This document shows positions 11,717 to 64,000 of a stretch of DNA of 64,000 nucleotides, piece after piece. Made by a program: the position numbers and the translations under genes. Within the stretch, counting starts at the first letter, position 1, and every line of letters starts with the position of its first letter. The stretch is from the IMG/VR virus record IMGVR_UViG_3300045988_052724, positions 96,001 to 160,000 of that record. One strand, 5' to 3'. The notes beneath the pieces were generated by a model. That model saw nothing but the letters and a program-made list of their open reading frames with translations, made no database searches and was not told the DNA's origin. The DNA is from a virus.

Positions 11717-11721
11717 TTTAA

Positions 11722-17356: not shown

Positions 17357-17388
17357 CAAAGTTAATGATTCTTAAAGGTCATACCAAA
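17357..17388 (-). promoter_or_regulatory. Bacteroidota sigma-A type promoter (-33 TTTG, 20 nt, -7 TAACTTTG)
   Basis: The minus strand reads TTTG-GTATGACCTTTAAGAATCAT-TAACTTTG, about 68 nt upstream of the ATG at 17289. Confidence 0.7.
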
Positions 17389-17476
17389 GAAATATTGTTA
17401 ATCAATGTTAACTACAAAATAATTGTATTAAAATATCCAAAAATCATCTCTATGGTAATCACCTATTTGAATTATG

Positions 17477-20400: not shown

Positions 20401-23400
20401 TCCAAGCACCAGTTAACTCCAACTTTAGACCAGGGTTATTCTGTCCAGAAATGCCAAATTCTCTCATACCTGGGCAATTGTCAATAGTTACCTGAACTAA
20501 GGGACTTACAGAGTTATTAATAGAAGAGTAAGGAATCCGGATAGTTTCCATCTTCTCACAATTCCTAATAATTACAGTCTTTACATTAGAAGGTACCGAT
20601 AAAGTCTTTATTGCACTACAGTTATTTATCTCTATAGACGTCAGTTTTAGGCAGTCTTCAATAAGTAGTGATTCAAGAAAGGATTGATTCTCTAACTTCA
20701 AACTAGTGATATCAGTTCCTGACATATTTAATACTTTCAGTACAGCAGATGTTGGGAACGTAATCTTAGTAATAGTAGAATAGGAAACATCTAACTCCTG
20801 GATTTTGTGACATCCACTTAAGTCTAATGTATACGCAAATGCAGTGGAACCAATAGGCTTTACTTTACTTAGATTTAGTTTCTTAATGTTCTTTAGACCT
20901 ATGTCATTAGCCTTGTTATATACACCTCCTTGGAAGAAATAAGCTGCATCCACATTGCCTAATCCACTTAAATCAAGTTCTTGCAACATAGGTAGATTAA
21001 TATTATCTAAACCAGTCCAAGGATAACTTTTGAATTTAGTAAAGTCAGTAATATATTTGTTAGCATACATATACACCACGGTCTCACCAGTAGGCATAGG
21101 TAATATAACTGACGTGGGAGTATCTGTAATCCAGAATGCACCAGTAGTCTTATCATGTGAATAATGATAAAGTATTTGGCTACTCGCTGTTATATCAGTA
21201 CTGAATCTTACTTCGGTAGCAGAACCTGTAGCTTTGTTAGAAGCCCATAGTCCAGTAATAGGAGATTCAATAGTAGTAGGTAATAGATTAGTATTATCCT
21301 TATAACCATATACTCCGTCTAAGAACATAATCCTCTTTCTAAACCAATCCTTAACGTGCATTACACGATTACCATGTAAGAACTTTAACTGACTAAAGTC
21401 TGTACTATCCTCATATTTACCAGTGTTTGGGTCATATGTCTTAGATATAGCAAGATACTTAATCTTATAATCATAGTTAAACATGATAGAACCTGTCTTC
21501 TCTGTATATGATTGATAGTAATCCTTAATAAATTTGTCAGGGTCAGGGAACAGGTTAGTTCTTAGATTTACATATAATGATTCTAAGCTAGTTCTACTCT
21601 CTGTGCTACCACTATCTATGCCAGCTAAGTTTTCAAGCACCTCCCATATTCTATTCCACCAAGAGGCAAAGAACTGCTTATAGCTATCAGATGATACATA
21701 ATTCTTCTCCTGTGTGTATTGGGTAATGCCAGTATCTTGTGAAGCAATATTATACCACCTATGTAAATGTGCCCAATATTCTACAATATCTTGTCCGGCA
21801 TTATTAAGCCCAAATGCTGTATCCATATCATAGAAACAGCAATACCATACATCTGTACCCCAACTACGAATAGTTAAATTCTTACACATTGAGTCCACAC
21901 AACCAAATAGTAATGCAATCATAAAATAAGCACAAGCGTTATCCCAGTTTAGGTGTTGGTCACAAGCACTAAAGTTATAATAAGCATTCTTATCCAAATC
22001 GTAGAACTCTCCAGGAATAGGCTTAGTAGGAGTCTGCCCAGCGTCATCCATTGTATATTTCTGGATACGAGTAAGAGCCATATTAGCCATCTGAGTATAG
22101 AACTTCTGCACTTGATTATATCCAATTGCCTCGTCTCTGGATGTATACATTACGTCACCCATAAACTGTACAATCTTCATATCGTCTTGTTGGAATGCAC
22201 CTTGAGCAGAAGAGTTCTGGTTTATTTCAACAGAGTATACTCCATTACTAACACCTGTATTCCACCTGCTAGCATCTTCTGTGTAATCTGTTACTAGTGT
22301 TGGTCCATCTTGGTTTACTTTAGTGTAGTCTAAAAGTAATTTTAGTCCAAGATTGAAGTAAGCATACCTACCCAGGTTGAAATTGTATATACCGCAGAAT
22401 TTAGGTTGTTTGATGGTACCATCAGCATCTGGTGCATATCTAATAAATAGTAACACTGGGAAACCTTCTGAGGTATGTTTAATCTTACCCCTAATAGCAT
22501 TGGCCTTATCAGCATCCCCTCCCCAAACATCATTACCTAACGACATGGGTGGGGTTGCTCCAAATGGAGTAATAGATTGTCCAGAAGTGTTCTTGGCTCT
22601 ACCATTTACAATCTGACCAATTACTACGTTATTAACGTGTGCAGAGTCTACTACGTCAGCCTTTAATGTAAACTCATTCTCTGGCAACCAATCATCAGTA
22701 GGTTGGAATAGCATCTTCTTACCGGTCTGGTCAACATCACCCATATAAATCTCAAAGTTCTTAGCATTATAAGACAGTGAAGACGTACCCTGTAAACCAA
22801 TAGTAACACCATTATTCTCTGACACTCCACTAGGAGTATTAATAACTACTTTACCCTTACTATCTTGATAAGTAATTTTAACGGGGAATTTCTTGCCCAT
22901 TACTTCTACCTTATCAGATGCAGAGAATATTGCAGTTGAATATGGTTCAAATAGTGTAGGGCTGTTAGATGTTTCCTCTACTAACACAATAGGATAAGGT
23001 GTGTTAATTTCCATTTGCTCTACTAACTTAGAGTATAATAACTCACCTGTTAGGAAACCACCCTTACCTCCATCCAGAGTCTTATCCCATATTAAGCAGT
23101 TACCTGCACTATCAAATAGATTCTTAGTTCTTAACTCAGCATCTAAAGATGCATCAATCTGACCTCTTACAAGTCTTGCCTGTTCAGTGGCAGATATATA
23201 GTTCTGAACAATAGCATATTCACTCTGTGAAGATGTATAAATCTTAATATCATAAATATTAACATCAGAGAATCTACTTCTTACCCCATTATCATTTCTA
23301 CATCCGAAATAGAAGTCAGTACCAAACATCCAGTCAATATCGGATTGTAGTACCCTACTTACAGCAGACAGCACACCATTGACATAGATTTTAAAGTACC

Positions 23401-25222
23401 AAGCATTTCCTGATAGTAATGATACATCTAGGTCTACAGTAAGTAACTCATTCTGCGGAAGTTTAACTGTAAGTGTATCAGCAGAACCAATCTTACATAC
23501 AGCTTTCTCTAATGATACTTCATAACCAGTTTTTAATTCACCATCCTCATACTGACCTATACCGCATACTACTTCTTCTGGATAAGAAGAGGCGTCTGCC
23601 TTATAAGTACAGGATATATGGAATCCCATAGGTTGGAAGAATGATACACCAGCACCAATATCAATGGCAGGGAACATAACATCCGCTACTTCAAGATAAC
23701 CGTAAGCCTCACCACTCAGTCTTGTTGCAGGTATTTGATTCACACCATCAATGTCCTGAATAAAACCACTAGTTTTACCATTTACTCCCTTTAGAGTAAA
23801 ATTCACACCATCTGGGAACTTAGATGCGAATGCACCCTCGTATATGAAATCCCCGCTAGTTTTGATAGGATAATTCCAAGTACCAGTAGAAGTGTTAGGG
23901 AATCCAGTAATTTTACTATAATACGCAAGTAGTGTATGTAGGTCATTGTTAGCATATAAGTCAGTACTTACACTCTCTACTATCCTACAAGTAACTGTCT
24001 TGGTATATTGAGCAGAAGTATCACCAGGGTCATTTACTGCATATCCAAATAGGGTGATTCTTAAATACTCATCATCCTTATTAACAGATAGGTTTACTGT
24101 ACTATATACAAATCTATTAGTTTCACTCTTATTAATATTCTTAATTGTACCTGTGTCGAGTAATGATACTTCACCACTTCTATTCATTAGATGGATTTTA
24201 TAATCCATGTTGAATGTACTATACTTACTAAGACCATAACTAAAGTAATAACTAAATCCTAATTGAGAACCCTGACCATACTGTGTTAAATCCTCAAGAG
24301 TTTCTCCGGGATTTGAGGATGGGGTAAACTCTGTAATATCCTCGGTTACAATAACTAAGTTATTACTATCTGCTACAGTAATGTCGAATTTAATCTGTTC
24401 AGACTGTATTACATCACCATTAAGTGTAGTACTTGCCTGTGCTATAAAATAGAATCTTTGTCCAGCTTTTGGATTAAAGTGCTCACTCTCAAACAGTAGC
24501 TTACGAGCGTCATAACTTAGTGCACGAATAGCTGTAGTAATGTTACCTACCCTAGCAACTTCAATACCATTAATAGTCATCCAGAACTCGGCAGGGCTTT
24601 GCAGGATATTATTAGTTACAGTGTAGTTAAGAGGTACTTCTGCAACACCACCCATATACATAGTCTTAGGTGGTATAGATTGAATCTCTAAAGAGATGGC
24701 ACCAGCCACAATCTTTACGTATGTAGGAGTGGTGTATACATTATCACTATCATAGGCAGACAATTCTACGTCAGTAGTTCCAGATAATCCAGTAATGGTA
24801 ATGTCTGTTCTAGCCATAGAGTACTTCTTCCATGTTCCTAATGTTTTGTTGGTAGCCAAATCTTTAGCAATTACAGTAAATGACTTTTTAACACCACCAC
24901 TTTTAATTAAGATATTAAGTGTAACAGTATTAGTAGCTGTATAGACTGTACTACCTTCAGCTACATCAATGGTGTATTCTGAGCCATCCCCTCCACCACC
25001 GCCGCCTCCACCACCGCCGATTGCACCATTAAGGTACACCCAGGCTAGGTTTTGTTCTAACTTAGTCATTCTATTATCTAGCTTTGTGAAGCCATTGTCA
25101 ATAGAAACTGATTCCCCAGCTTCATTTAAGAAGCCAGGGTTTGTCAGTTCCAATTCTGAAGCATTAGAAGCACCGTCGATTACCCATCTTCCAGTTACTT
25201 CATCATAATGTTTTATTTTCAT
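17477..25222 (-). CDS. Giant multidomain virion-module protein (2581 aa): N-domain, Gly10 linker, LamG-like, CotH-like and leucine-rich repeat regions
   Basis: GLQGTSSLSYNAKNFEIYMGD and WYCCFYDMDTAFGLNNAG resemble CotH kinase-fold motifs (about 21300-22900). Classical LRRs are present (LDLSG…LNLSK…LDVSYSTITKI…LNMSGTDITSL). Many BspA-type repeats follow (F.GC.NL…) at about 17500-21000. Confidence 0.6.
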   Translation of the reverse strand: MKIKHYDEVTGRWVIDGASNASELELTNPGFLNEAGESVSIDNGFTKLDNRMTKLEQNLAWVYLNGAIGGGGGGGGGGDGSEYTIDVAEGSTVYTATNTVTLNILIKSGGVKKSFTVIAKDLATNKTLGTWKKYSMARTDITITGLSGTTDVELSAYDSDNVYTTPTYVKIVAGAISLEIQSIPPKTMYMGGVAEVPLNYTVTNNILQSPAEFWMTINGIEVARVGNITTAIRALSYDARKLLFESEHFNPKAGQRFYFIAQASTTLNGDVIQSEQIKFDITVADSNNLVIVTEDITEFTPSSNPGETLEDLTQYGQGSQLGFSYYFSYGLSKYSTFNMDYKIHLMNRSGEVSLLDTGTIKNINKSETNRFVYSTVNLSVNKDDEYLRITLFGYAVNDPGDTSAQYTKTVTCRIVESVSTDLYANNDLHTLLAYYSKITGFPNTSTGTWNYPIKTSGDFIYEGAFASKFPDGVNFTLKGVNGKTSGFIQDIDGVNQIPATRLSGEAYGYLEVADVMFPAIDIGAGVSFFQPMGFHISCTYKADASSYPEEVVCGIGQYEDGELKTGYEVSLEKAVCKIGSADTLTVKLPQNELLTVDLDVSLLSGNAWYFKIYVNGVLSAVSRVLQSDIDWMFGTDFYFGCRNDNGVRSRFSDVNIYDIKIYTSSQSEYAIVQNYISATEQARLVRGQIDASLDAELRTKNLFDSAGNCLIWDKTLDGGKGGFLTGELLYSKLVEQMEINTPYPIVLVEETSNSPTLFEPYSTAIFSASDKVEVMGKKFPVKITYQDSKGKVVINTPSGVSENNGVTIGLQGTSSLSYNAKNFEIYMGDVDQTGKKMLFQPTDDWLPENEFTLKADVVDSAHVNNVVIGQIVNGRAKNTSGQSITPFGATPPMSLGNDVWGGDADKANAIRGKIKHTSEGFPVLLFIRYAPDADGTIKQPKFCGIYNFNLGRYAYFNLGLKLLLDYTKVNQDGPTLVTDYTEDASRWNTGVSNGVYSVEINQNSSAQGAFQQDDMKIVQFMGDVMYTSRDEAIGYNQVQKFYTQMANMALTRIQKYTMDDAGQTPTKPIPGEFYDLDKNAYYNFSACDQHLNWDNACAYFMIALLFGCVDSMCKNLTIRSWGTDVWYCCFYDMDTAFGLNNAGQDIVEYWAHLHRWYNIASQDTGITQYTQEKNYVSSDSYKQFFASWWNRIWEVLENLAGIDSGSTESRTSLESLYVNLRTNLFPDPDKFIKDYYQSYTEKTGSIMFNYDYKIKYLAISKTYDPNTGKYEDSTDFSQLKFLHGNRVMHVKDWFRKRIMFLDGVYGYKDNTNLLPTTIESPITGLWASNKATGSATEVRFSTDITASSQILYHYSHDKTTGAFWITDTPTSVILPMPTGETVVYMYANKYITDFTKFKSYPWTGLDNINLPMLQELDLSGLGNVDAAYFFQGGVYNKANDIGLKNIKKLNLSKVKPIGSTAFAYTLDLSGCHKIQELDVSYSTITKITFPTSAVLKVLNMSGTDITSLKLENQSFLESLLIEDCLKLTSIEINNCSAIKTLSVPSNVKTVIIRNCEKMETIRIPYSSINNSVSPLVQVTIDNCPGMREFGISGQNNPGLKLELTGAWNLEVLDLSYTKTEDIVLASLYVNGEPNFSSLRSLDISGTSLYTLKYNDRTFDYLDLTAFPDLENIRAANCKMLTEVRCKNDKDNPIEVALGAFKDCNSLQRVKGHIALQGSEVFRGCNSFYLNPNELYTQFGTDVFLTGDDATNITFDRNLTEVYFMFEDCSNLSYNDFKYLMVRLTDKVTSLEGAFKGCSNISGDLWYDMFRPCPNVNTIKEAFSNTRLSGIFFSRGQDYNPAKDSTWGILDFVPKLTDTEAAFDNTSIEWIDNNVFAPIVNGRTTTYSPLVKIDYMFRGCYSLKSCVSTRTTPITEGFLSSKTFFTNLRNLAGTYPKGVFTGCDKVKMTVDNDASGNTYLFHTVNKVTQSLVLTDSVYNGIKLVGKIGPNVFGGISQTISDNGTTWYIPTFTSIQFPFQYSGGAGLQVNLSEMGSMFQAISSTLRQAVGIFSGLECSDEEGAQSIPADIFKHCTILNSIESFFSGIDINNDGKVYEFPPAGMFDDCVSLQNIRRLFSGCNNLKLKLVGEGFKNCALSDVSYAFENSGVFGMIPYRLFFMTKSKSDGSKVINQTITDMAGVFSGCWCLGYDETRTIDVGSDLITGMTKTVWADHIIQTVGNRVPFKLDVSNMKKSYNYDRNEDPDSEEYNPGEQAFDVWYLDGYGWEGASSSESGLDAAKTRLNERYFKYDSQQKVAISQQDLDRSEVGYQNYMFPTDYFRYCSSNCNFENSLADFTYKSNIKKFDAETGNYSVEGTEEYDGMVGRIPCKLFEALKDNTSLTSVFKGIKFCAFVNLQGQTFTRGIKYPPDLFKYNTKLEDISNIFAQTSIEVGVDINSDLFANNANLKSVSGVWSNCLFDKRAYKAEGTQEIYSQIDFANMFKNNTKITNASNLFAVTVSGASKEKPYGLLLITEDLLKTCYNINNISNMFYYCAALAGAVPPFPSASYPVLNVVSGYLSGVTKANITNAESLEARLVPAEWL

Positions 25223-46244: not shown

Positions 46245-48467
46245 CTATGCGTTTTTAACTTCGTTATTCATTTGGTTACCATCGAATAATTGAGCATATT
46301 CAATGTCTGTTCTCTTAGTATCGTTCTCAGCATCACTCTGAGATTTGTCTCTTTGAGTCCTAGCATTATACCAGTTAATATCAGCCTCATTCTGAACCTT
46401 CTGTCTCTCAATGTCCAACTTAGCCTCATTAAGACTTTCAATCTTGCCTTGAGCTTGTTGTAGTTGTTGTTGTAACTTCTGATTCTCTTGCTGTAATTGT
46501 TCAAGCTGTTGTTGCATTTGACCTACCTCATTCATCTCCTTCTTCTTCTTAGCAAAGGCTTTGGTAACCTTAGCCTTAAGTTCAGTAAGACTTCTAGCAG
46601 TTAAAGCATCAACAATCATATCTGGGTCTAATTGACCACTCTTTATAAGCTCAATAATGATTTGCTGAACATTCTGCATCTCCTTCATAATCTGAGTACT
46701 CGGCACAATATGCACATCGTAATCAGTATGAGTAAAATGCTCTGGTAGTGCGGTAAATACTTTCTGTAGTTTATCTCCAAGAATTAGAGTTCCAGTTAAT
46801 CCTTTCTTCCACACTATCTTAGCTATATCAAGACAATCTCTAAGAATGTCTATTGATAATGTATCCATAGTCTGATAGAATGGTTTAGTAATAGTATATG
46901 AGTTTCTAGCTCCAGCCTCTACATTACTAACTGCATCCTTTTGCTGAATACCATTAAGTCTTTCTCTAAATACACCAGTGATAGATGATGTTTGGTCTTC
47001 CACTCTTTGTAGTGCTAAATCAAAGGCTTGAATAGTCTGCACTTTAATAGTATCAGTAAATCCAGCAAATGAAGTATTGTTATTAAATGCCCTACCTTCC
47101 TGACTGGTATCTACTAAAGCTACTCCAGTCTTTTTAAATGCAATCCATTTCTGTATTCTTTCAGTAAGGTCATCACCTAATATTGTTGGAAGCATAGATA
47201 AGTCTAGCCAATCACCATCAGTACCACTATTAGCTAAGATATTATCTCTAAAGTAAGTAATTAAGTCATACTTATCCTGTAGGTGAGCACATTGTAATAC
47301 TAAAGACTGTGGAACATTGTCTCTATTAACCAGATATATACCATTAACAGATAATCCACACTTAGTAGGGGCATCCTTAGTTCTAATTACATTCTCTGAT
47401 TTACCAGTAAGAACATATATAGACTGTCCTATCCTAACTCCCTCGTACCTATTCTGAACGTATTCATTACCTTCTTTGTCTATGTCAATCCATTCTGTTT
47501 CATAAACAGGTAATAGCTTATAGTTAAATGACTCATAAGTATCAGCAGGAAATCCTGGGACAATACCTTTACCTGCATCTAATCCAGCACCCTCACCTTC
47601 CATAATAGGTCTACATCCTACTTGGTTCTCCATAGCTCTAATATACATATAGGAACTATCAGAGTAATGCTCATACATATCTTCTAATTCAGCTCTACTC
47701 TCATCATTTAGGTCTTTACCATACTCAATAAGAATTTGCTGTTTAGTCATCCATTTCCTAATTACGACCCTATAACTATCCTTTACATAAGGAGATTCAG
47801 GGTTCCTATCAACAAATGTATTTAAGGGATTAAGAACATCAATACTAATATTAGTTCCACTAGCTGATGGTTTAACCTTATAGAATGAGCATCCAGTAAC
47901 AAGTAAGTCTAATAGTAATGCCTTTAGCTTATTAGCCAAGTCAGTGTTCCTTGATTGAATTACGTACTCAATAACATTCTGGGCAGCTATTTCGTAGTCA
48001 CTAATAAAGTTATTATTAATATCCTCAATTAGCTTCTCTATGTCGGCCTCAACTGAAGCATCACTAACATTACCTCCTCCTATAAAGGCTAGAATCTGAT
48101 TGTTCAAATGCCTCTGTAAGAATGTATAGACTTGCTGGCTTATTTCTAACTCCTTCTGCCTAGTAATCTTGGAGATTGTTTCCTTATCTTTACAAGATAC
48201 CTTTGGAAGAATTGGAATGTCTAAATACTCTCCAATTAAAGCATCAACGTGTTTCTTTATAAGGGGAGTGAACTCAATAGAAGTAGGATTACCTATTCCA
48301 AAGTTTTCTTCAAGATACCTAAATTGTTCGGCGTCTCTCTTACCGTTATAATAGTTGTATGCCTTCTGTAACTTCCATTTGTTGAAGACTAACTCATTTA
48401 CAGCTTTGTCAATCTTCTCTATCAAATAATCATCACTTCTTTGCTTTGCACTCATCTTCGTAATCAT
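46245..48467 (-). CDS. Portal protein candidate (740 aa)
   Basis: The size, the position next to the large terminase and the Q-rich coiled-coil C-terminus fit a portal. No diagnostic motif could be verified by eye. Confidence 0.6.
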   Translation of the reverse strand: MITKMSAKQRSDDYLIEKIDKAVNELVFNKWKLQKAYNYYNGKRDAEQFRYLEENFGIGNPTSIEFTPLIKKHVDALIGEYLDIPILPKVSCKDKETISKITRQKELEISQQVYTFLQRHLNNQILAFIGGGNVSDASVEADIEKLIEDINNNFISDYEIAAQNVIEYVIQSRNTDLANKLKALLLDLLVTGCSFYKVKPSASGTNISIDVLNPLNTFVDRNPESPYVKDSYRVVIRKWMTKQQILIEYGKDLNDESRAELEDMYEHYSDSSYMYIRAMENQVGCRPIMEGEGAGLDAGKGIVPGFPADTYESFNYKLLPVYETEWIDIDKEGNEYVQNRYEGVRIGQSIYVLTGKSENVIRTKDAPTKCGLSVNGIYLVNRDNVPQSLVLQCAHLQDKYDLITYFRDNILANSGTDGDWLDLSMLPTILGDDLTERIQKWIAFKKTGVALVDTSQEGRAFNNNTSFAGFTDTIKVQTIQAFDLALQRVEDQTSSITGVFRERLNGIQQKDAVSNVEAGARNSYTITKPFYQTMDTLSIDILRDCLDIAKIVWKKGLTGTLILGDKLQKVFTALPEHFTHTDYDVHIVPSTQIMKEMQNVQQIIIELIKSGQLDPDMIVDALTARSLTELKAKVTKAFAKKKKEMNEVGQMQQQLEQLQQENQKLQQQLQQAQGKIESLNEAKLDIERQKVQNEADINWYNARTQRDKSQSDAENDTKRTDIEYAQLFDGNQMNNEVKNA

Positions 48468-57075: not shown

Positions 57076-59299
57076 TGTAGTTAAACAAGACAATACTAGA
57101 GTATCTAAACCAATCATCCCAGAAATTATTAAGGCAACCCCAAGACAGTATCAATTTGTTGACCTAGGGGGAGGGCCTTCTACTGATACAAGAACAGCTG
57201 CTGAAAGGAATAGAGACTATTGGCATCCCATTAAAGGAGCTAAAGAAAGGTTTAAATCTTCTATGAAGAATGAGACTAACCCACTAGTAGGTATAGAAAG
57301 AACTATAATGCCTGCTATGGCTGGTGCAACATTAGTAACAACTCCAGCTACAGTAGGAGGTTTATTAGGAAGTGAAGCTGTTAATAATGCTACTGGTGGA
57401 TTTGGTCAATGGTTGGAAGGTAAGGTTGGAATACCAGCTGAAGTTGGAGAATATCTAAACCCTGGTGCAGTATATGGAGGAGGCAAAGGTCTTAATGTTA
57501 CTAAGAACAAATTAGTTTCTAAGTTTATTAAAGGGGATGCTGACTTAGGTTGGAATGCTCTTAATAGAAATCATTGGATATTTAATAGAGAGGCTCGTAC
57601 ACCTACTAATATTGCTATGGCTACTGCTAATAGAGCAATGCCATTCTTATCTAATGTAGAGAAGACTCCAGCAAGAATTGCAGCTTATAAAGTAGGTAGA
57701 AGAACCAAAGGTAATGCTTCTGTATCTTTAAAGGATATAAAGAATAATGAGTCTACATACACAGGTTCAGCAACACCAGAAGGTAATAATGGTGATAGGG
57801 ACTTATTAGGAATGTATCTATTTCAGAATGACCCATTAATAAGTAAGAGTCCTTGGTTTCAGAAGGTAGCTAAATCATTTAAACCTGCTAAAGGAAAAGG
57901 GTTCAGTCATGGAGATAGATATAATCAACTATATCCTGGTATTGAGAATAGAAGATACCAAATGCAATCTGTAGTTAAAGATTCAAGACCTTTAAGGTTT
58001 AGAAATATAGAAGAGTTTAATGAATACTCTAATGGTATAGGTAAATTACAAGGTAAAGAAGGTGATATGGTTATAGAGATGCCAGATGGATTTCAAACCT
58101 TTAGACAGCCTGGAACTAATTATGTAGGACCTATAGATGATGTAGGAGGTCATGTTATAAAGATTGATTACAACAATAAGGGAAAGCTAACCCAAATATC
58201 TCAAGATATGTGGAAGTTTAATCCAGCTGACTATGCTAAGAGATGGTCTGGCAAGAGTGTAGCAGAGGGAGTTAGGGCTACTAAACAAGCTGCACTTATG
58301 GATAAGGTGGGAACTCCATTTATATTACAGCAAGAGAATCCTATCTATATAGGTGGAAGAAGAGTATGGGATAGCATTAAGAGTATTCCTAAGAATCCAT
58401 ATATAAGAAGACAACCTATGATGCAAGGTGCATTATTAACTATGAAGAAAGGTGGTAGTCTAGTATCTGATGGTAGAAGATTCAAGTTTAAAGATTCTAC
58501 ACTAGTAAAGAACTCTAAGACTCTTAACAATAAGAGAGATATGAGGAAGAAATTCATGAAATCTGACAGACCTACATATAGTAACAATAGAGTTAGGAAG
58601 GGACAAGAAGGATTACGATTTACTAGGTATGATGTTATAGAAAGACCTACTCTTAATATGGATAATACATTTGAAGAATACAGATTCCCAGTTGATAATA
58701 CTCCAACTTATACTATTAAGAGAGAGGAAACTCCAGTAGATGTACAGCAACCCATTATTAAAGAAGAAGAAACACCTATTATGAAGAGAGAGTTATTCAA
58801 CATCAAACCATCTAAAGGATTAGATGAGTTTAATAAGTGGTACGATGAGGTAGAACAAGAAGACCCAGAAGCTAAGAACTATAGACAATTCCTTACTAAG
58901 ATGGCTGAACAGGAATCAGGATTTAATAGTGCAATACAAAATAGAGCTGGCGCTCCTGCCTATGGCTACTTCCAATTCATGCAAGATGGTAAAAAATATA
59001 ATAATATTTCTGCTTATGCTGGAACAGATGTAGATACATTTAGGAATAATCCTAAACTACAGATTAAAGCCGCTATTAAATTAGCTAAGCAATTTGAAAG
59101 AGGGTTTAATAAACAAGATTTAGAGCTAGCTGCACAAAAAGGATATACTAAATTTGGATTGTTAGGTGGGGCATGGTTGGCTGGTAATGGTGGAGTTAGA
59201 AAATATCTACAAGGATTGGCTAACCCATCTGATAAACATTGGAGTAAATCTGGAAGTGGAACGGATGTAGCTAGTAGAATACAGATGTTTAATTTCTAA
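57044..59299 (+). CDS. Large protein with a C-terminal lytic transglycosylase (SLT) domain (about 751 aa from the ATG at 57044)
   Basis: C-terminus: …MAEQESGFNSAIQNRAGAPAYGYFQFMQ…, with the catalytic E-S and a GxxQ motif. The track start at 56999 lies deep inside the HNH ORF, so 57044 is preferred. Confidence 0.7.
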   Translation: MEIINKLQKGNVVKQDNTRVSKPIIPEIIKATPRQYQFVDLGGGPSTDTRTAAERNRDYWHPIKGAKERFKSSMKNETNPLVGIERTIMPAMAGATLVTTPATVGGLLGSEAVNNATGGFGQWLEGKVGIPAEVGEYLNPGAVYGGGKGLNVTKNKLVSKFIKGDADLGWNALNRNHWIFNREARTPTNIAMATANRAMPFLSNVEKTPARIAAYKVGRRTKGNASVSLKDIKNNESTYTGSATPEGNNGDRDLLGMYLFQNDPLISKSPWFQKVAKSFKPAKGKGFSHGDRYNQLYPGIENRRYQMQSVVKDSRPLRFRNIEEFNEYSNGIGKLQGKEGDMVIEMPDGFQTFRQPGTNYVGPIDDVGGHVIKIDYNNKGKLTQISQDMWKFNPADYAKRWSGKSVAEGVRATKQAALMDKVGTPFILQQENPIYIGGRRVWDSIKSIPKNPYIRRQPMMQGALLTMKKGGSLVSDGRRFKFKDSTLVKNSKTLNNKRDMRKKFMKSDRPTYSNNRVRKGQEGLRFTRYDVIERPTLNMDNTFEEYRFPVDNTPTYTIKREETPVDVQQPIIKEEETPIMKRELFNIKPSKGLDEFNKWYDEVEQEDPEAKNYRQFLTKMAEQESGFNSAIQNRAGAPAYGYFQFMQDGKKYNNISAYAGTDVDTFRNNPKLQIKAAIKLAKQFERGFNKQDLELAAQKGYTKFGLLGGAWLAGNGGVRKYLQGLANPSDKHWSKSGSGTDVASRIQMFNF

Positions 59300-59303
59300 G
59301 AAC

Positions 59304-59561
59304 ATGAAATTTATAACCTTTATAAAGGGGATGGTTACTTCACATTCTGGTATTAGTAGTAAGAGAGTGTGTGGAGTATTAGGATGGATAGTTGCTATAA
59401 TAGTGTTACTATATTGTACTATTCATGTTATCCAAGCCCCATTAATGATAGATACATTCTTAGTATGCTGTATGGCATTACTTGGTATAGATTCAATAAC
59501 TGGTATCTGGAAGAAATTTGATAAACATGATAGACCAAATAAAGAAATTCCTGAAGGGTGA
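59304..59561 (+). CDS. Small two-TM membrane protein, holin candidate (85 aa)
   Basis: Two hydrophobic helices (VLGWIVAIIVLLYCTI; FLVCCMALLGIDSI) and a charged C-terminus. It follows the SLT gene. Confidence 0.45.
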   Translation: MKFITFIKGMVTSHSGISSKRVCGVLGWIVAIIVLLYCTIHVIQAPLMIDTFLVCCMALLGIDSITGIWKKFDKHDRPNKEIPEG

Positions 59562-59760
59562 TAAAATATTACATATGATATGCTGCTTTGCTATTGTAGT
59601 AATATTTGGATTAATCTTAAATATAGTTAGTGGAATTGCTCTAGCTCTAATAGCTTCATTTGGTAAAGAAACTTATGATGAAGTAAAATACAAAGGTTGG
59701 AGCTGGGATGATTTGCTAGCAGATTTATTAGGAATAGTTTTAGGAATCTTAGTACTATGA
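59518..59760 (+). CDS. Small membrane protein (80 aa)
   Basis: Hydrophobic helices flank GKETYDEVKYKGWSWDDLLADLLG. Confidence 0.5.
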   Translation: MINMIDQIKKFLKGDKILHMICCFAIVVIFGLILNIVSGIALALIASFGKETYDEVKYKGWSWDDLLADLLGIVLGILVL

Positions 59761-59948
59761 ATTATAATCAAGCTACACTTCACGCTGCTACTGGTAAGAT
59801 ATTAATGCTTCCAGGTTGGCACGGATACTTTTATTGGAACTATAGTACTAAGGAACTAAACTTTAGAGATGGCGATTATCATTTAGATGGGAAGCAATTA
59901 CGAGATATGAACATTAGAGATAGGAATGATTGGTATTATATTACCTAA
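59757..59948 (+). CDS. DUF2829-like small protein candidate (63 aa)
   Basis: The pattern is N-terminal …A…A.GK….PGW.G…, then …DG…, then C-terminal DWYYI. This resembles the DUF2829 profile as I recall it. Confidence 0.35.
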   Translation: MNYNQATLHAATGKILMLPGWHGYFYWNYSTKELNFRDGDYHLDGKQLRDMNIRDRNDWYYIT

Positions 59949-59978
59949 GTTTTATTAACAATTAAACACAACACAATT

Positions 59979-60179
59979 ATGAGACATTTTATGATGGACG
60001 TTTGGATTTGGACAGAGGATAAGCACTCTAAGCCATTAAAGACAATTAGATTTGAGCAAGACCATTTTCCTACTGAGAAGGAATGTTGGCATTGGTTTAC
60101 TAAAGATGAAGATGTAGAAGTATATATGAAAAGTGGTATTTGTGTAAAATTCAATAATATACATGAGTATCAGAAATAA
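59979..60179 (+). CDS. Hypothetical small protein (66 aa)
   Basis: Track ORF, last gene of the plus block, followed by a terminator. The antisense ORF 59945-60154 was rejected. Confidence 0.5.
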   Translation: MRHFMMDVWIWTEDKHSKPLKTIRFEQDHFPTEKECWHWFTKDEDVEVYMKSGICVKFNNIHEYQK

Positions 60180-60184
60180 ACAAA

Positions 60185-60229
60185 AAGGCGGCTCTAGCTT
60201 AATTGCTAAAGTCGCCTTTAAATTTTTAC
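60185..60229. terminator. Bidirectional terminator between convergent blocks
   Basis: The stem is AAGGCG (60185-60190) / CGCCTT (60213-60218), with an inner TAGC/GCTA pairing. An A-run lies upstream and TTTAAATTTTT downstream. Confidence 0.6.
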
Positions 60230-60231
60230 TA

Positions 60232-60582
60232 CTATTGTGGATTGCATCTTCCTACAAATACAAGAATTGGATAGCCATCTTCATCTAATTCTTCATCATA
60301 CATCTTATTAGATGTCAAGTTAGAGTAGCATACTTCTAGCTCTACTGCTGGGTATTTAAGATAGTCCCAGCCTGGATGTACATAAGCTCTTTCTTGTATA
60401 GCTCTACACTTTAGATTATATAGTGCAGGAGGCATTGGATTAGCATAATTAAGAACAGCTAAATTAAATAATGCTGCACCCTTCTCACCAGTTATAAATG
60501 TGAAGTCATTATCTTCTTTAATAGCATTTAGCTTATTAATAGTATCCTTAAAGGTTTCCCAGGTTAGGTTATTGTAACTCAT
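60232..60582 (-). CDS. Hypothetical protein (116 aa)
   Basis: Track ORF. Confidence 0.55.
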   Translation of the reverse strand: MSYNNLTWETFKDTINKLNAIKEDNDFTFITGEKGAALFNLAVLNYANPMPPALYNLKCRAIQERAYVHPGWDYLKYPAVELEVCYSNLTSNKMYDEELDEDGYPILVFVGRCNPQ

Positions 60583-60847
60583 TGAAATTTATTTTAAAAC
60601 TCTTAGATGTATAACTTAATGAACTATTATCAACATGAGATGGAAAGTCTACATCCTTAGTCTTTACATATAATTGACAGTGGCACATACCCTCTTCCAT
60701 TTCTCTAAACTCTTTACACATACATACTGTATCATCGTCCCTTACTAAGGAGCAAGGGCAGTATCTTTTACCATACTTCTCCTTGTTCCTTTGTAAGCCT
60801 GCTAATACAGCTTCCTTCACTTCTTTATCATCGGTTACTCTTACCAT
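60569..60847 (-). CDS. Ferredoxin-thioredoxin-reductase catalytic-chain-like Cys-cluster protein (92 aa)
   Basis: YCPCSLVRDDDTVCMCKEFREMEEGMCHCQLY gives a CPC…CxC…CHC arrangement like the FTR beta chain. Confidence 0.5.
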   Translation of the reverse strand: MVRVTDDKEVKEAVLAGLQRNKEKYGKRYCPCSLVRDDDTVCMCKEFREMEEGMCHCQLYVKTKDVDFPSHVDNSSLSYTSKSFKINFNELQ

Positions 60848-60872
60848 ATATTTATACTTATATTTCTAATGC

Positions 60873-61046
60873 TCATCTTCTCCCTGTCTTTATTAGTCTG
60901 ACCATCTCTTCATGGGCTTTTGCTATATTCATAAGTAATAACTCCTCTGCAATCTGAGGATTAGTTGGAACCACATGAGAGATTTTTACAGTATACTTCC
61001 CCTCTTTAAGGAGTATATAGCACACTCCACCATTATAATATATCAT
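60873..61046 (-). CDS. Unlisted small ORF (57 aa)
   Basis: My translation is MIYYNGGVCYILLKEGKYTVKISHVVPTNPQIAEELLLMNIAKAHEEMVRLIKTGRR. Its ATG overlaps the upstream TGA (ATGA). It fills an otherwise empty gap. Confidence 0.5.
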   Translation of the reverse strand: MIYYNGGVCYILLKEGKYTVKISHVVPTNPQIAEELLLMNIAKAHEEMVRLIKTGRR

Positions 61047-61318
61047 AGTATATTAGACCACTTCTTATTTGGAGCAATGTCTTGAATGCAGCCTGGAATA
61101 CGTTTAGTTTCATATTCTGTGATAGTCTTAGCACCTAGAATGTTGCCAGCTTGTAGTATCTTTTCCCTTAGCTCTTTAATATATTTATCTCTAATAGTAA
61201 TCATCCCGCATAAAGATGATATTGCTCTTTGTACAACATTAGCATCTTCATCGGATAGGTGTGATAATATTTCATCAACAGCCTCTACATCATATAATTC
61301 AATTTCATCAATAGTCAT
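61043..61318 (-). CDS. Hypothetical protein (91 aa)
   Basis: Track ORF. Confidence 0.55.
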   Translation of the reverse strand: MTIDEIELYDVEAVDEILSHLSDEDANVVQRAISSLCGMITIRDKYIKELREKILQAGNILGAKTITEYETKRIPGCIQDIAPNKKWSNIL

Positions 61319-61461
61319 TATTTCTTTAGTTTATTTTCTAGCTCAAGAATCTTAGCCTTTAATTCGGAGTTCTCCTTAGCTAGTGCTATATTATCATTCT
61401 TAACCTGTTCTGCTTTCTTCATAAACTCTTCTACACCCTGCTCAAACAGAGTTAGATTCAT
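61318..61461 (-). CDS. Unlisted small coiled-coil ORF (47 aa)
   Basis: My translation is MNLTLFEQGVEEFMKKAEQVKNDNIALAKENSELKAKILELENKLKK. Its stop overlaps the next ATG (TAATG). Confidence 0.5.
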   Translation of the reverse strand: MNLTLFEQGVEEFMKKAEQVKNDNIALAKENSELKAKILELENKLKK

Positions 61462-61462
61462 T

Positions 61463-61852
61463 TTAATTTGTCTGATTTCTGGAATCATTGTTAAACTTAT
61501 CCTCTAGTTCATTAATAATTCTGTGAAGACTTGGAATCTTACTTGTAATAATACTATCCAAGTAATCTTTAATATCATCCAGAGTCATTGCATCAAATTC
61601 ATCTTTAGATAAATTACGTGATTCAATTGTCTCTATAAATACATCAATAGCATCTTTAATAGCTTGTTTGTCTCTTAGTAGCTGTTCATGTGTTAGATGA
61701 ACATTAGTAATCTTAGAGAACAATGCTGGGTGTCTAGTAAATATCTCTTCTAATTCCTCATCACTAATTAGTTGCAGTAATTCTACTGCCTTATTATAGA
61801 GTACTTGTGCCTCTATAACATCGTACTTATCAAGTATAGATTTTAATTGCAT
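61463..61852 (-). CDS. Hypothetical helical protein (129 aa)
   Basis: Track ORF. Confidence 0.55.
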   Translation of the reverse strand: MQLKSILDKYDVIEAQVLYNKAVELLQLISDEELEEIFTRHPALFSKITNVHLTHEQLLRDKQAIKDAIDVFIETIESRNLSKDEFDAMTLDDIKDYLDSIITSKIPSLHRIINELEDKFNNDSRNQTN

Positions 61853-62055
61853 AGATTTCTGTAAATATTAGATAGTGTTAGACAATGCTCAATATTAGCA
61901 CCATTCTCTAGTCCTGATATGATTTTATCTAATACTGTCAGTTTAGCTACCATAGCCTTACCCCATACAATAGAATCCTCTTTAGGTTCGCAAGAACCAC
62001 ACTGACATTTACAACCTTCTTCTGTTGTTACAATTTCTTTTACTTCTTTAGCCAT
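61843..62055 (-). CDS. Small Cys-cluster protein (70 aa), first gene of the minus-strand small-gene operon
   Basis: Track ORF with the motif CKCQCGSCEP. Confidence 0.5.
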   Translation of the reverse strand: MAKEVKEIVTTEEGCKCQCGSCEPKEDSIVWGKAMVAKLTVLDKIISGLENGANIEHCLTLSNIYRNLCN

Positions 62056-62191
62056 AATTCAAAATTTTATAATTAATACGTTATTTCTTCCTTATTGTTT
62101 GGTAATACAAAGATAATACATTCTAAATAGATTACCTAATGAGTTATACTTAAATATACTTAATATAGGCGAACTCAATTACTAGGTACTC

Positions 62192-62210
62192 CAAAAATAC
62201 GCCCCTCCCC
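62192..62210 (+). repeat. Direct repeat copy 1 (CAAAAATACGCCCCTCCCC)
   Basis: It shares CAAAA.ACGCCCC.TC with 62354-62370. It forms a GC-rich island in AT-rich intergenic DNA. Confidence 0.5.
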
Positions 62211-62263
62211 ATTGAGGTGACCAGTCAATAAATATTTGAGTTTTATTGGTAGATAATTGTTAG

Positions 62264-62287
62264 ATTTGCAATTCGCGAATTGCAAAT
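62264..62287. repeat. Perfect 24-bp palindrome ATTTGCAATTCG/CGAATTGCAAAT (candidate operator or origin element)
   Basis: I read it directly, and both halves are exact reverse complements. It is located in the divergent intergenic region. Confidence 0.85.
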
Positions 62288-62353
62288 TCTTTAGTCTGAG
62301 TTTGTCATGGGATATGTGAGTAGGAGCTATGTTGTGAGAGGGAGGGTAGTGTA

Positions 62354-62370
62354 CTACAAAACGCCCCCTC
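62354..62370 (+). repeat. Direct repeat copy 2 (CTACAAAACGCCCCCTC)
   Basis: See copy 1. The two copies flank the palindrome. Confidence 0.5.
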
Positions 62371-62414
62371 TGGGTTGCTCAAGAAAAATTGAATTAAAAT
62401 TGAAGTTGCCGATG

Positions 62415-62499
62415 CACTATTACTAATATATTTCATCAGTCTTTGCTTGAATTGTTGAACTTAAAACCTTGCGGTGTAGAGGCTAACCGCAATACAGTC
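62415..62499 (+). promoter_or_regulatory. Leader/promoter cassette copy 1 (CACTATTACT… TTGAATTGTTGAACTT … hairpin GCGGT-N10-ACCGC)
   Basis: It is one of three ~85-nt units with the same order of blocks and the same distance (82-85 nt) to an ATG. Confidence 0.6.
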
Positions 62500-62580
62500 A
62501 TGCAAACTACATACGTTTTATTCAATGGCGTTTTGGTTACTTTACAAGAGTACAAAGAAATGATTGCAGAGCAACAATAG
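62500..62580 (+). CDS. Micro-ORF (26 aa) MQTTYVLFNGVLVTLQEYKEMIAEQQ
   Basis: It is a paralogue of 62713-62790, and several of the differences between them are synonymous. It has its own leader cassette and a downstream hairpin. Confidence 0.55.
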   Translation: MQTTYVLFNGVLVTLQEYKEMIAEQQ

Positions 62581-62595
62581 TGCTCTGCTTTCAAA

Positions 62596-62628
62596 AGGAG
62601 ATTGTCTCCCTTTAATTCTTTTCTTTTA
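62596..62628 (+). terminator. Hairpin plus T-rich tract after micro-ORF 1
   Basis: GGAGA-TTG-TCTCC is followed by CTTTAATTCTTTTCTTTT. A second hairpin, GCAGAGCA/TGCTCTGC (62566-62588), spans the stop codon. Confidence 0.45.
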
Positions 62629-62630
62629 TA

Positions 62631-62712
62631 TACTATTACTTGTTATATATCTTCATTATGGTTTTGATTATTAACTTAGGCTTTGCGGTTGTGTGTAACC
62701 GTTATCAGAATT
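62631..62712 (+). promoter_or_regulatory. Leader/promoter cassette copy 2 (TACTATTACT… TTGATTATTAACTT … hairpin CGGTT-N6-AACCG)
   Basis: See copy 1. Confidence 0.6.
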
Positions 62713-62790
62713 ATGAATACGACATACGTTCTTTATTGTGGTGCATTGATTACTTTAGCTGAATACAAAGCAATCATCGCTGAACAGTAG
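62713..62790 (+). CDS. Micro-ORF (25 aa) MNTTYVLYCGALITLAEYKAIIAEQ
   Basis: Paralogue of 62500-62580. Confidence 0.55.
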   Translation: MNTTYVLYCGALITLAEYKAIIAEQ

Positions 62791-62797
62791 CATTAAT

Positions 62798-62825
62798 GGG
62801 AGTGGCGACACTCCCTTATTTTTTC
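62798..62825 (+). terminator. Intrinsic terminator
   Basis: GGGAGTG-GCGA-CACTCCC followed by TTATTTTTT. Confidence 0.7.
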
Positions 62826-62845
62826 TAATCATTAATACTTATCTT

Positions 62846-63019
62846 ATGAATACGTTAACAGACAAGGAACTTAATGACTTACTATCATTAATGGTTATGG
62901 TTGGGCAACAACCATCTATTAAAGCTTATGACCTTCTTGACCCATATTATGGAAAGGTCTCTCAGGAGGTGTGGGAACATGCTAACACTCTCATTCAGTT
63001 AAGACTAAGACAGGGTTAA
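62846..63019 (+). CDS. Unlisted small ORF (57 aa)
   Basis: My translation is MNTLTDKELNDLLSLMVMVGQQPSIKAYDLLDPYYGKVSQEVWEHANTLIQLRLRQG. It is followed by a terminator. Confidence 0.5.
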   Translation: MNTLTDKELNDLLSLMVMVGQQPSIKAYDLLDPYYGKVSQEVWEHANTLIQLRLRQG

Positions 63020-63036
63020 TCCCTGTTTTAGTTTTT
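63011..63036 (+). terminator. Intrinsic terminator overlapping the stop codon
   Basis: CAGGG-TTAAT-CCCTG followed by TTTTAGTTTTT. Confidence 0.6.
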
Positions 63037-63044
63037 GAATAATA

Positions 63045-63128
63045 TACTATTACTTAATTAATATCTTCAGAATATCCTTGAATTATTAACTTTCCCTTTT
63101 ACGGTGTGGGTAAAACCGTTAGAAGCAT
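63045..63128 (+). promoter_or_regulatory. Leader/promoter cassette copy 3 (TACTATTACT… TTGAATTATTAACTT … hairpin ACGGT-N9-ACCGT)
   Basis: See copy 1. The closing pair of the hairpin covaries: G-C in copy 1 and A-T here. Confidence 0.6.
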
Positions 63129-63650
63129 ATGGATACATTATTCAGCTTTGCAATCGAGTACAACAAGGCATTCTGTGCCAAGTTAGGTGTTGAGATTAAG
63201 ACTGGCTTAGATGCCTTCGAGTCTAACGACACAGTTGTGCGGCGTTCCTTAGAGGACGCAATGTTTCACGTTGGTGACATCGTGGAAATACCTGCAAAGG
63301 ATAGTGACCAATGGGTTTCGTGTCCCGTAGCTAAAGGAGGCAATGCAGTGGTTCGTCCAGTCTGCAAGGTCACTGCATCAGACGGGACAGTTACAGCACG
63401 CGAGCTGTTTTACGGTACACTCACCAAATCGGTGCAGAATCGTGAGACGAAGCAGACTGTAGCTGTTACTGGCACGATTGTCGACGAACTTCGTAACTGC
63501 ATCATGCAGAAGGAAGGTTGGTTGAAATTGTGCGGCAAGAAGCTCAAGGTGACCAATGCAGTCGAGGTGCCAATCATCCGAAGAGGGTGGAATGGGCAGC
63601 CAGACAGAGCTACCACAACCACAGTCTACAGCATAGACGTGGTTGAGTAA
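63129..63650 (+). CDS. Hypothetical protein (173 aa) encoded by a GC-rich island
   Basis: Track ORF whose composition is clearly GC-richer than everything around it. It is the only place in the window where long antisense ORFs (98 and 70 aa) arise. Confidence 0.65.
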   Translation: MDTLFSFAIEYNKAFCAKLGVEIKTGLDAFESNDTVVRRSLEDAMFHVGDIVEIPAKDSDQWVSCPVAKGGNAVVRPVCKVTASDGTVTARELFYGTLTKSVQNRETKQTVAVTGTIVDELRNCIMQKEGWLKLCGKKLKVTNAVEVPIIRRGWNGQPDRATTTTVYSIDVVE

Positions 63651-63656
63651 CACAGA

Positions 63657-63689
63657 GGAGAGTGGTGACAGCACTCTCCTTTCTTCTTA
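63657..63689 (+). terminator. Intrinsic terminator
   Basis: GGAGAGTG-GTGACAG-CACTCTCC followed by TTTCTTCTT. Confidence 0.65.
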
Positions 63690-63711
63690 AAACAATTAAA
63701 TACATTATATT

Positions 63712-64000
63712 ATGAAAGTTACAATATCAGGAATTACATTAAAAGATGAGAAAACTATTCATCTGTTAGTTGCAGGAAATGCTAAGCCCAATCAGCAAGT
63801 CACATTCCATTACAGTCACAACATTCTGACTGTTGAACATAAATATGGAGCAGTTCAACTTCCAGTAATCAAGTTCAAGTTTAGTAGAAATGATGTAACG
63901 TTCTATTGCTATGATTTGGACGGCAAAACTGTTCTATATTTCAATGGCAGCAAATTCACATCTAACCCTAAAGAGTTCGAAGACACTATTGATAAGTGGG
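63712..64000 (+). CDS. Hypothetical protein, partial (runs off the window edge)
   Basis: From the ATG at 63712 the frame is open to the end of the window (MKVTISGITLKDEKTIHLLVAGNAKPNQQVTFHYSHN…). Confidence 0.5.
   Translation, partial: MKVTISGITLKDEKTIHLLVAGNAKPNQQVTFHYSHNILTVEHKYGAVQLPVIKFKFSRNDVTFYCYDLDGKTVLYFNGSKFTSNPKEFEDTIDKW

Follow-up and report, generated by a model that had tools for sequence, protein, structure and literature searches.

The early genes of phi14:2, a crAss-like phage, are transcribed by a virion RNA polymerase and their transcription is rifampicin-resistant (bioRxiv 10.1101/2020.03.07.982082). The crAss virion polymerase transcribes the early genes, yet in this one studied system no common motif was seen upstream of the early transcripts and the enzyme was efficient only on single-stranded DNA; in the literature no paper was found that defines the early promoters of any crAss-like phage. 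Other phages provide described signals. In T4-like phages, PeSL elements, each a terminator stem-loop followed by an early promoter, are repeated between small variable early genes (PMC2839356, PMC4122927). Virion-polymerase phages carry lineage-specific AT-rich motifs upstream of early operons (PMC7598289), and the N4 promoters are hairpins with a conserved 3-nucleotide loop on the template strand, all conserved bases lying between -17 and +1 (PMC4496689). Here we describe a leader cassette of about 88 nucleotides (nt), present in three copies near the right end of a 64,000-nt stretch of viral DNA (positions 96,001 to 160,000 of IMG/VR record IMGVR_UViG_3300045988_052724; hereafter the window). 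The cassettes are real, beyond chance, and vary on elements of known kinds.

The order of elements is the same in each copy: block A, an AT-rich spacer, block B (TCWTCA), 8 nt, block C, a C/T-rich run, a stem-loop and an ATG. Block A in its full form is (A)TATACTATTACT, but GCACTATTACT in cassette 1. Block C reads TTGA(A)TT(A/G)TT(A/G)AAC(T)T, and the stem of 5-6 base pairs (bp) is followed after 9-11 nt by the ATG. A preliminary description of this DNA had placed the same block order before three open reading frames (ORFs), and all elements were found where it had placed them. The distance from block A to the ATG, described as 82-85 nt, was measured as 85, 82 and 84 nt with the preceding C/T included, and the stems GCGGT/ACCGC, CGGTT/AACCG and ACGGT/ACCGT were confirmed at their arms. 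The three cassettes, each recognised by pattern, MAFFT alignment and covariance model, are made up as follows.

62412 to 62499, plus strand: cassette 1 (covariance model, 84 bits).
62416-62424, plus strand: block A of cassette 1, ACTATTACT.
62433-62438, plus strand: block B of cassette 1, TCATCA.
62446-62462, plus strand: block C of cassette 1, CTTGAATTGTTGAACTT.
62471-62490, plus strand: hairpin of cassette 1, GCGGT, a 10-nt loop and ACCGC (arms 62471-75 and 62486-90), 9 nt from the ATG at 62500.
62628 to 62712, plus strand: cassette 2 (covariance model, 77 bits).
62632-62640, plus strand: block A of cassette 2, ACTATTACT.
62650-62655, plus strand: block B of cassette 2, TCTTCA.
62663-62677, plus strand: block C of cassette 2, TTTGATTATTAACTT.
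62685-62702, plus strand: hairpin of cassette 2, (G)CGGTT-GTGTGT-AACCG(T) (arms CGGTT 62686-90 and AACCG 62697-701), 10-11 nt from the ATG at 62713.
63042 to 63128, plus strand: cassette 3 (covariance model, 99 bits).
63046-63054, plus strand: block A of cassette 3, ACTATTACT.
63064-63069, plus strand: block B of cassette 3, TCTTCA.
63077-63092, plus strand: block C of cassette 3, CTTGAATTATTAACTT.
63101-63119, plus strand: hairpin of cassette 3, ACGGT-GTGGGTAAA-ACCGT (arms 63101-05 and 63115-19), 9 nt from the ATG at 63129.

The best explanation of the cassettes, to which we give about an even chance, is an early promoter specific to the phage, joined to a leader hairpin that is transcribed, in a PeSL-like arrangement. 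Each cassette would be a composite expression signal heading a short early transcription unit. Its 5' part would be a lineage-specific promoter consisting of block A (ATATACTAKTACT), then after 7-9 nt block B (TCNTCR) and after a further 8 nt block C (TTGAWT), off the host sigma-A consensus and, judging by position and analogy, most likely serving the phage's own virion-delivered polymerase. The 3' part (TTAWTAAC, the C/T-rich run, the 5-6 bp stem-loop, 8-11 nt and the AUG) would be transcribed and act as a 5'-leader RNA, its most plausible target being translation start or the stability of the mRNA. A terminator-like hairpin would close each unit, and terminator plus promoter would form repeated modules like the T4 PeSL, which may also be homologous recombination substrates through which small early genes are deleted or swapped. 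Promoter activity, the position of the transcription start, the acting polymerase and the role of the hairpin are the parts of this explanation that we infer.

The specificity of the cassette was assessed in the window and in related genomes. The pattern ACTAKTACT-N7-9-TCNTCR-N8-TTGA matched three times in the window, each time in a cassette, against none in 100 dinucleotide shuffles; the block A 9-mer alone matched 7 times against 2.1 expected. No further strong copy was obtained in the window with nhmmer and the covariance model. The search for more copies that had been proposed with the preliminary description, carried out with a covariance model of 25 variants and nhmmer, gave strong copies only at this locus in the window and 515 kb of family sequence. 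In two scans of IMG/VR, multi-copy matches were confined to five contigs of this lineage (107-185 kb, one of them 185,468 bp), each with 3-4 tripartite matches on one strand within about 1.65 kb and zero elsewhere. These clusters sit at the start of the rightward early block.

Alignment of the three cassettes with MAFFT gave a mean column identity of 77%, and block A is the most conserved part. Conservation begins sharply 2-4 nt before block A, while the upstream flanks (genes, terminators) are unrelated; such an abrupt 5' boundary is the pattern expected for a transcription signal. In orthologs of cassette 3 conservation is higher across the entire leader, with its loop, than in the coding sequence that follows. 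Neither megablast nor blastn matched the region to any of 50,697 phage records, Rfam covariance models gave no relevant match over 59000-64000 at E values up to 1, and nothing in the early region of crAss001 matched the cassette model significantly. TAKTACTT occurs twice upstream of crAss001 gp104, a number in line with chance. Upstream of the first early gene of crAss001, in the intergenic region 14320-14390 (minus strand) of its locus L257, TATTACTT and TAGTACTT lie 59 nt apart together with three copies of ATTAATAG (labels of this form denote loci of relatives). In the window, a weak covariance-model match inside a 740-amino-acid (aa) ORF (46818-46899, minus strand; 27 bits, E 0.09; TATACTATTACTAAACCATTCTATCAGACTATGGATACATTAT) combines block A with a word resembling block B and with the initial 13 nt of the 173-aa ORF that follows cassette 3, and is probably due to chance.

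A fourth tripartite copy occurs after the next terminator, as the variant TATACTAGTACT-CCTCACA-TCCTCG-ATATGTAT-TTGAATAAAA. It starts about 90 nt past the window end, at about 64092 as extrapolated from L001, and precedes a paralog of the 173-aa ORF. Blocks A, B and C stand at the same spacings in this module; the TTATTAAC-hairpin part is missing, and about 270 nt of non-coding sequence come next. In L079, L086 and L229 a 10-nt insertion separates TTGA from TTATTAAC, the distance from hairpin to ATG being unchanged. Because of the hairpin-less fourth copy and this insertion, the promoter-like module and the hairpin are separable, and the cassette is, as read from its sequence, a composite of a promoter-like module and a leader hairpin.

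A different repeat was seen in a more distant relative, represented by L113-L117 (hereafter the L114 family), with contigs of about 160 kb and a 173-aa protein that is 40% identical. Here five copies of TTTTAGTTCTTTTAAAAYC each follow directly on a terminator hairpin, and 44-135 nt further on comes either an ATG or a GC-rich non-coding stretch. These repeats were not detected by a hidden Markov model of the A-C module. Aligned by eye, copy 5 of L114 (TAGTTCT-N15-TATGTATTTGAGTAA) resembles the fourth module (TAGTACT-N15-TATGTATTTGAATAA); the other copies are not alignable in this way. The comparison is suggestive of modules that are analogous, and homologous only possibly. A motif that changes with the phage lineage at constant placement would be in keeping, by analogy, with phages that bring their own polymerase, and unlike a host promoter. 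L114 also carries, at 5695-5843 just downstream of a 179-aa gene, at least five copies of a 20-nt repeat, (A/G)TTTACAA(A/T)TGTAAAT, which looks like an iteron or operator array.

The effect of sequence divergence on the leader hairpin was followed in 20 distinct variants gathered from metagenomes, Logan assemblies and IMG/VR. Standard pairs are formed in 99% of the cells, double compensatory changes occur at four of the five pairs, none of 500 shuffles reached the observed pairing values, and slid controls collapsed. For instance, GCGGT/ACCGC of cassette 1 is replaced by ATGGC/GCCAT in L086, with three pairs compensated; ACGGT/ACCGT of cassette 3 by ACGAT/ATCGT in L001, L004 and L095; and L011 has ACGGTT/AACCGT where L015 has GCGGTT/AACCGC. 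Selection acts on the hairpin. The preliminary description had argued for a selected structure from a G-C to A-T change within the window; that change is weak alone, the copies not being independent, and it is the compensatory changes in relatives that bear the claim out. Stem complementarity was likewise retained in the homologous copies, apart from a mismatch in L231-L233.

RNAalifold on the full cassette alignment predicted this helix only, and no pairing in blocks A-C. The loops (10, 6 and 9 nt in cassettes 1, 2 and 3; 5-10 nt in relatives) differ in sequence. Five wobble cells were seen on the sense strand, four G.U and one U.G with zero A.C or C.A, from about three independent events. 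Since the wobbles are G.U or U.G on the sense strand, a sense-strand structure, most simply RNA, is favoured; read on the template strand they are A.C mismatches, a lean against template function that is not significant. The 5' untranslated region (UTR) element offered as an alternative in the preliminary description fits the hairpin part of the cassette. In position the hairpin is comparable to a lambda nut site, after a promoter-like module and with terminators downstream; its loops, however, have only a leading GU in common between copies, and neither a boxA nor an N-like protein was identified.

The same hairpin was considered as an N4-like signal, in which it would form in single-stranded DNA as the promoter of the virion polymerase, with transcription beginning 8-11 nt downstream, at the ATG or beside it, so that the mRNAs would be leaderless. 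The cassettes are like N4 P1-P3 in having three copies at the start of the early region, in a phage type that injects its own polymerase, and a short inverted repeat at a fixed short distance. Moreover, the hairpin-to-ATG distance of 8-11 nt is held before unrelated ORFs, N4 transcription starting about 8 nt past its hairpin (PMC4496689); gp66 of phi14:2 transcribes single-stranded far better than double-stranded DNA (bioRxiv 10.1101/2020.03.07.982082); and the hairpins of cassettes 1 and 2, as short DNA strands, fold better than 200 of 200 shuffles. However, the N4 hairpin is the whole promoter, in template-strand DNA, with a 5-7 bp stem and a 3-nt loop with required purines, whereas here stems of 5-6 bp carry differing loops of 5-10 nt, and the sense-strand wobbles, one of which is internal in L079 and L229, would read as A.C mismatches on the template strand. 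The strongest conservation, in blocks A-C at 40-85 nt upstream of the ATG and not in the hairpin region, would be left unexplained. The fourth A-B-C module and the L114-family repeats are without such a hairpin, and the crAss polymerase is a two-barrel enzyme, not T7-like. These features, together with the 10-nt insertion in L079, L086 and L229, do not support the N4 analogy drawn in the preliminary description, and we regard this mechanism as improbable. The 8-11 nt distance is most plausibly explained by a role in translation start.

A likeness is also found to the virion-polymerase phages phiKZ, AR9 (PMC7598289) and P23-45 (bioRxiv 10.1101/2022.12.01.518664), in which a conserved lineage-specific AT-rich motif can be computed upstream of early operons and not of late genes. 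The cassettes are distributed in this manner, the 107-185 kb contigs having 3-4 copies where the early block begins and no others. The motifs of those phages are about 10 nt long, centred near -10 and verified by 5' ends, whereas the cassettes extend over about 35-45 nt in three blocks and are known from sequence alone; the polymerase families also differ from those of crAss-like phages. By analogy, transcription could start just after block A, if this is -10-like as in the jumbo phages, or a few bases after block C. The earlier idea of promoters for a virion or phage polymerase appears plausible. A bolder proposal, which we put forward tentatively and consider rather unlikely, is that blocks A-B-C would be the first recognisable promoter class of the crAss-type two-barrel virion-delivered polymerase, tripartite, of about 35 nt, differing from one Zeta lineage to another and coevolving with the enzyme, the leader hairpin being an RNA signal for translation or terminator read-through of immediate-early micro-genes.

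Zeta phages are reported to have a polymerase gene (PMC7886860, PMC12386605). Neither the window nor the 20 kb on its left side yielded a polymerase gene, and comparison of five other large ORFs with PDB, Pfam and PHROGs gave none either. The 2581-aa ORF at 17477-25222 (minus strand) was rejected as a virion polymerase: it has no DxDxD and gave only weak leucine-rich repeat (LRR) domains and 'internalin-like' annotations. Over its full length this protein is 26-27% identical to giant proteins of crAss002, of the cr109_1 group and of DAC16-23/SJC03, which are non-crAss Bacteroides phages. The close relative L248 has, at the rightward block's far end, a 3095-aa ORF (3635-12919) with DLDID at residue 2065, in agreement with the DxD(I/V)D signature reported for crAss polymerases; this ORF is a candidate for a divergent crAss-type polymerase.

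The cassettes alternate with small ORFs and terminator-like hairpins, which are arranged as follows.

62500 to 62580, plus strand: micro-ORF 1, 26 aa (MQTTYVLFNGVLVTLQEYKEMIAEQQ).
62594 to 62628, plus strand: terminator-like hairpin (stem 62597-62609) with T-rich tail, directly upstream of cassette 2.
62713 to 62790, plus strand: micro-ORF 2, 25 aa (MNTTYVLYCGALITLAEYKAIIAEQ), a paralog of micro-ORF 1.
62798 to 62824, plus strand: terminator-like hairpin GGGAGTGGCGACACTCCC followed by TTATTTTTT, from the hairpin scan.
62846 to 63019, plus strand: 57-aa ORF without a cassette of its own, lost in recombinant genomes.
63010 to 63036, plus strand: terminator-like hairpin ACAGGGTTAATCCCTGT with T-rich tail, directly upstream of cassette 3 (the palindromic stem was listed on the minus strand by the scan; the T run follows on the plus strand).
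63129 to 63650, plus strand: 173-aa ORF behind cassette 3, unrelated to the micro-ORFs and with no family match.
63657 to 63689, plus strand: terminator-like hairpin GGAGAGTGGTGACAGCACTCTCC with T-rich tail, closing the cassette 3 unit; the same type is present in L079 and L163.

Micro-ORFs 1 and 2 share the consensus TTYVL..G.L.TL.EYK..IAEQ, and because relatives show many synonymous and almost no amino-acid changes they are real coding genes. Since the ORFs behind cassettes 1 and 2 are paralogous, these two cassettes stem from a tandem duplication of the whole unit, ORFs included, and the three copies are therefore not independent. About 1 kb downstream of the 173-aa ORF lies its paralog of 176-178 aa, preceded by the fourth A-B-C module. 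Six terminator-like hairpins with T runs were found against 1.2 expected; hairpins of this type close each unit, one stands 15-25 nt before block A in each of cassettes 2 and 3, and none precedes cassette 1. These hairpins form a repeat family of their own, topped by GTGGTGACAGCAC (or GTGGCGACAC), at 63657-63679 in the window, 9061-9083 and 9366-9388 in L079 and 14650-14672 in L163.

Chimeric cassettes were observed among the relatives. The upstream flank of cassette 2 is joined to cassette 3 in L005, with the junction within block A; cassette 1 is joined to cassette 3 within CTTGAATT in L110; and in L015, L189 and L231 a cassette 2-type 5' half is joined to cassette 3 within TTTGAATTAA. The intervening ORFs are lost in all of these. 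Cassettes of type 1 front different micro-ORFs in L079 and L088 (MEFNES.. and MELINE..). Contig ends inside cassettes in L088 and L101 were considered as transcript ends and set aside, being most likely assembly breaks at repeats; integron attC-like recombination sites were dropped as there is no extended imperfect inverted repeat. The arrangement resembles the T4-like PeSL (PMC2839356, PMC4122927), with putative promoter function here, in that a terminator stem-loop and then an early promoter are repeated between small variable early ORFs, and in that breakpoints of indels and gene swaps fall inside the repeated element. The PeSL promoters are near-consensus host sigma-70 promoters, however, whereas the cassettes have no consensus of the sigma-70 or Bacteroidetes type; the cassettes, unlike PeSL, have an extra conserved leader stem-loop about 10 nt before the ATG; and PeSL number dozens over hyperplastic regions, whereas 3-4 cassettes stand in one cluster.

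Several observations weigh against a phage-specific promoter fused to a leader hairpin. The DLDID ORF in a close relative is the sole polymerase evidence for this genome, and that ORF is without detectable similarity to solved structures (PDB), to PHROGs or to phage proteins with annotation. Of 67 relatives anchored on the neighbouring SLT gene, just 5 yielded the cassette (some of the loci may not reach the region), and L163, whose left flank is almost identical, has unrelated early genes and lacks it; the cassette is therefore not family-wide and is specific to a sub-lineage. No replacement repeat was found in L163 or L166, close relatives without it. The L231-L233 lineage has its mismatch at the central stem pair, and the folding energies of the 64-65-nt leaders are ordinary compared with shuffles (z-scores -0.5 to +0.2). 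About 130 nt upstream of cassette 1 there is an exact host-type promoter, which could drive a long transcript to which the cassettes would be internal. Finally, block C starts with near-matches to the host -7 box (TATCCTTG, TGGTTTTG, TGTATTTG), and block A stands at the -33 position, in the geometry TTAC-N19-TAnnYTTG.

The last of these points bear on whether the cassettes could be weak or deviant host promoters, with a degenerate -7 box (TAnnYTTG) in block C, the invariant block A, in place of the -33 TTTG, as the binding site of an activator or repressor from phage or host, and the hairpin as a 5' UTR element. It had been stated in the preliminary description that none of the cassettes contains the host promoter TTG...TAnnTTTG; this is true for the exact match, near-matches being present at the start of block C in cassette 3 (TATCCTTG) and cassette 2 (TGGTTTTG). 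A regular expression for -33 TTTG and -7 TAnnTTTG at 17-22 nt spacing matched at 55843(+), 62236(+), 29471(-), 17387(-) and 10766(-), and in no cassette. The spacing from block A to the 8-mer ending in TTG equals that from -33 to -7 of the Bacteroidetes sigma-A promoter, and TTAC-N19-TATCCTTG of cassette 3 has the geometry of the canonical TTTG-N19-TAnnTTTG at 29471(-) and 10766(-). Most copies have 8-mers that agree with the -7 consensus at 4-5 of 6 positions, and the 10-nt insertion of L079 falls downstream of the -7-like box and so would lie in the transcript. Yet no copy has TTTG at -33, most copies carry G, C or T instead of the key A at position 2 of the -7 box, and conservation peaks at block A, not at the -7-like box. 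In the L114 family these places are taken by TTTTAGTTCTTTTAAAAYC, three of whose five copies are without a -7-like box, and a host promoter should not vary by phage lineage; the early genes of phi14:2 are, moreover, rifampicin-resistant (bioRxiv 10.1101/2020.03.07.982082). Deviant host promoters are thus an unlikely explanation, though one to be ranked above the N4-like mechanism.

The region just upstream of cassette 1 contains two further features.

62235 to 62286, plus strand: entry for the only exact host-type promoter match of the early block on this strand, TTTG-N22-TAGATTTG (62235-62268).
62265 to 62286, divergent intergenic region: perfect 22-bp palindrome TTTGCAATTCGCGAATTGCAAA, overlapping the promoter match.

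The intergenic regions of the 11.5-kb early block hold no exact host-type match besides this one. The -7 box of the promoter is not conserved in L163 and L079, and the palindrome core GCAATTCGCGAATTG is kept in both; the palindrome looks, from its sequence, like an operator. Between these features and cassette 1 lies a G-rich/C-rich element, GAGGGAGGGTAGTG...CGCCCCCTC (about 62336-62374), to which CGCCCCTCCCC at 62200-62213, about 130 nt to its left, is complementary; a similar element, GGGAGGG...CCCCCT, occurs in L079, L163 and the distant L114. Folding of the 241-nt region upstream of cassette 1 is unexceptional.

From this upstream promoter, for example, one long early transcript might be made, and the cassettes would then be RNA-level modules rather than promoters: AU-rich processing or ribosome-loading sites with a hairpin that sets translation, and terminator-like hairpins serving as 3' stabilisers after processing. 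The sole exact host-type promoter on the strand is just upstream of cassette 1, and the hairpin behaves as a sense-strand element. Read-through must also occur somewhere, because the 57-aa ORF (62846) and the ORF at 63713 follow terminator-like hairpins with no cassette. Against this, the -7 box of the upstream promoter is not conserved, blocks A-C are exactly conserved without predicted pairing, as is typical of a DNA-protein site, and cassettes 2 and 3 begin 15-25 nt after hairpin-plus-T-run terminators. The probability of a single long transcript appears to us to be low, and the phage-specific early promoter with its transcribed leader hairpin is retained as the best explanation.

The window encodes a terminase, a Crass_capsid major capsid protein and CrAss_Ring_1, and a crAss muzzle protein (crAss_MUZ) is encoded just to its left. 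From its sequence it is assigned to a phage of Crassvirales, Zeta group, of about 185 kb; contigs carrying the window sequence are about 182-189 kb. The 2581-aa LRR protein is common to the window and the DAC/SJC Bacteroides phages, and sharing with these phages marks the Zeta crAss-like group of the human gut, with genomes of 145-192 kb (Yutin et al., PMC7886860); the Zeta assignment follows from this shared block. The lineage is very abundant in human gut samples, its 173-aa protein being indexed in 4018 sample blocks. The structural genes are oriented leftward, with canonical Bacteroidetes promoters TTTG-N19-TAnnTTTG at 29471, 17387 and 10766. The cassettes form the head of the rightward block, in which small ORFs and long non-coding stretches lead, about 8 kb downstream, to a TROVE/Ro60-like protein. 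The early operon of crAss001 similarly has small early genes leading to a TROVE-like protein (PMC8375218), and phi14:2 and crAss001 belong to the same viral order and have host-type promoters on late genes. The absence of a common early motif in phi14:2 (bioRxiv 10.1101/2020.03.07.982082) contrasts with the clear repeated motif seen here, which is limited to one Zeta sub-lineage.

Further right, the non-coding stretches of the L001 early block measure 300-700 nt. At 7-10 kb right of the window end they contain a RAGATH-34 RNA (17308-17409; 86 bits, above the gathering score) and a twister-P1-like match (12045-12115; 53 bits, below the gathering score of 67; E 8e-10). Directly after the RAGATH-34 RNA is the gene for the 600-aa TROVE-like protein (17719-19521), with DUF2828, DUF7788 and a faint Ro60 vWA match. 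The proximity of this protein to the RNA, together with the TROVE protein in the crAss001 early operon, hints at a phage ribonucleoprotein.

The small early genes behind the cassettes probably act in host takeover or counter-defence, and the cassettes illustrate how such genes are gained and lost through recombination between expression signals. For the start of the infection programme of crAss-like phages, the cassettes provide a concrete sequence for promoter tests. The main value of the finding is a candidate for the early promoters of crAss-like phages.

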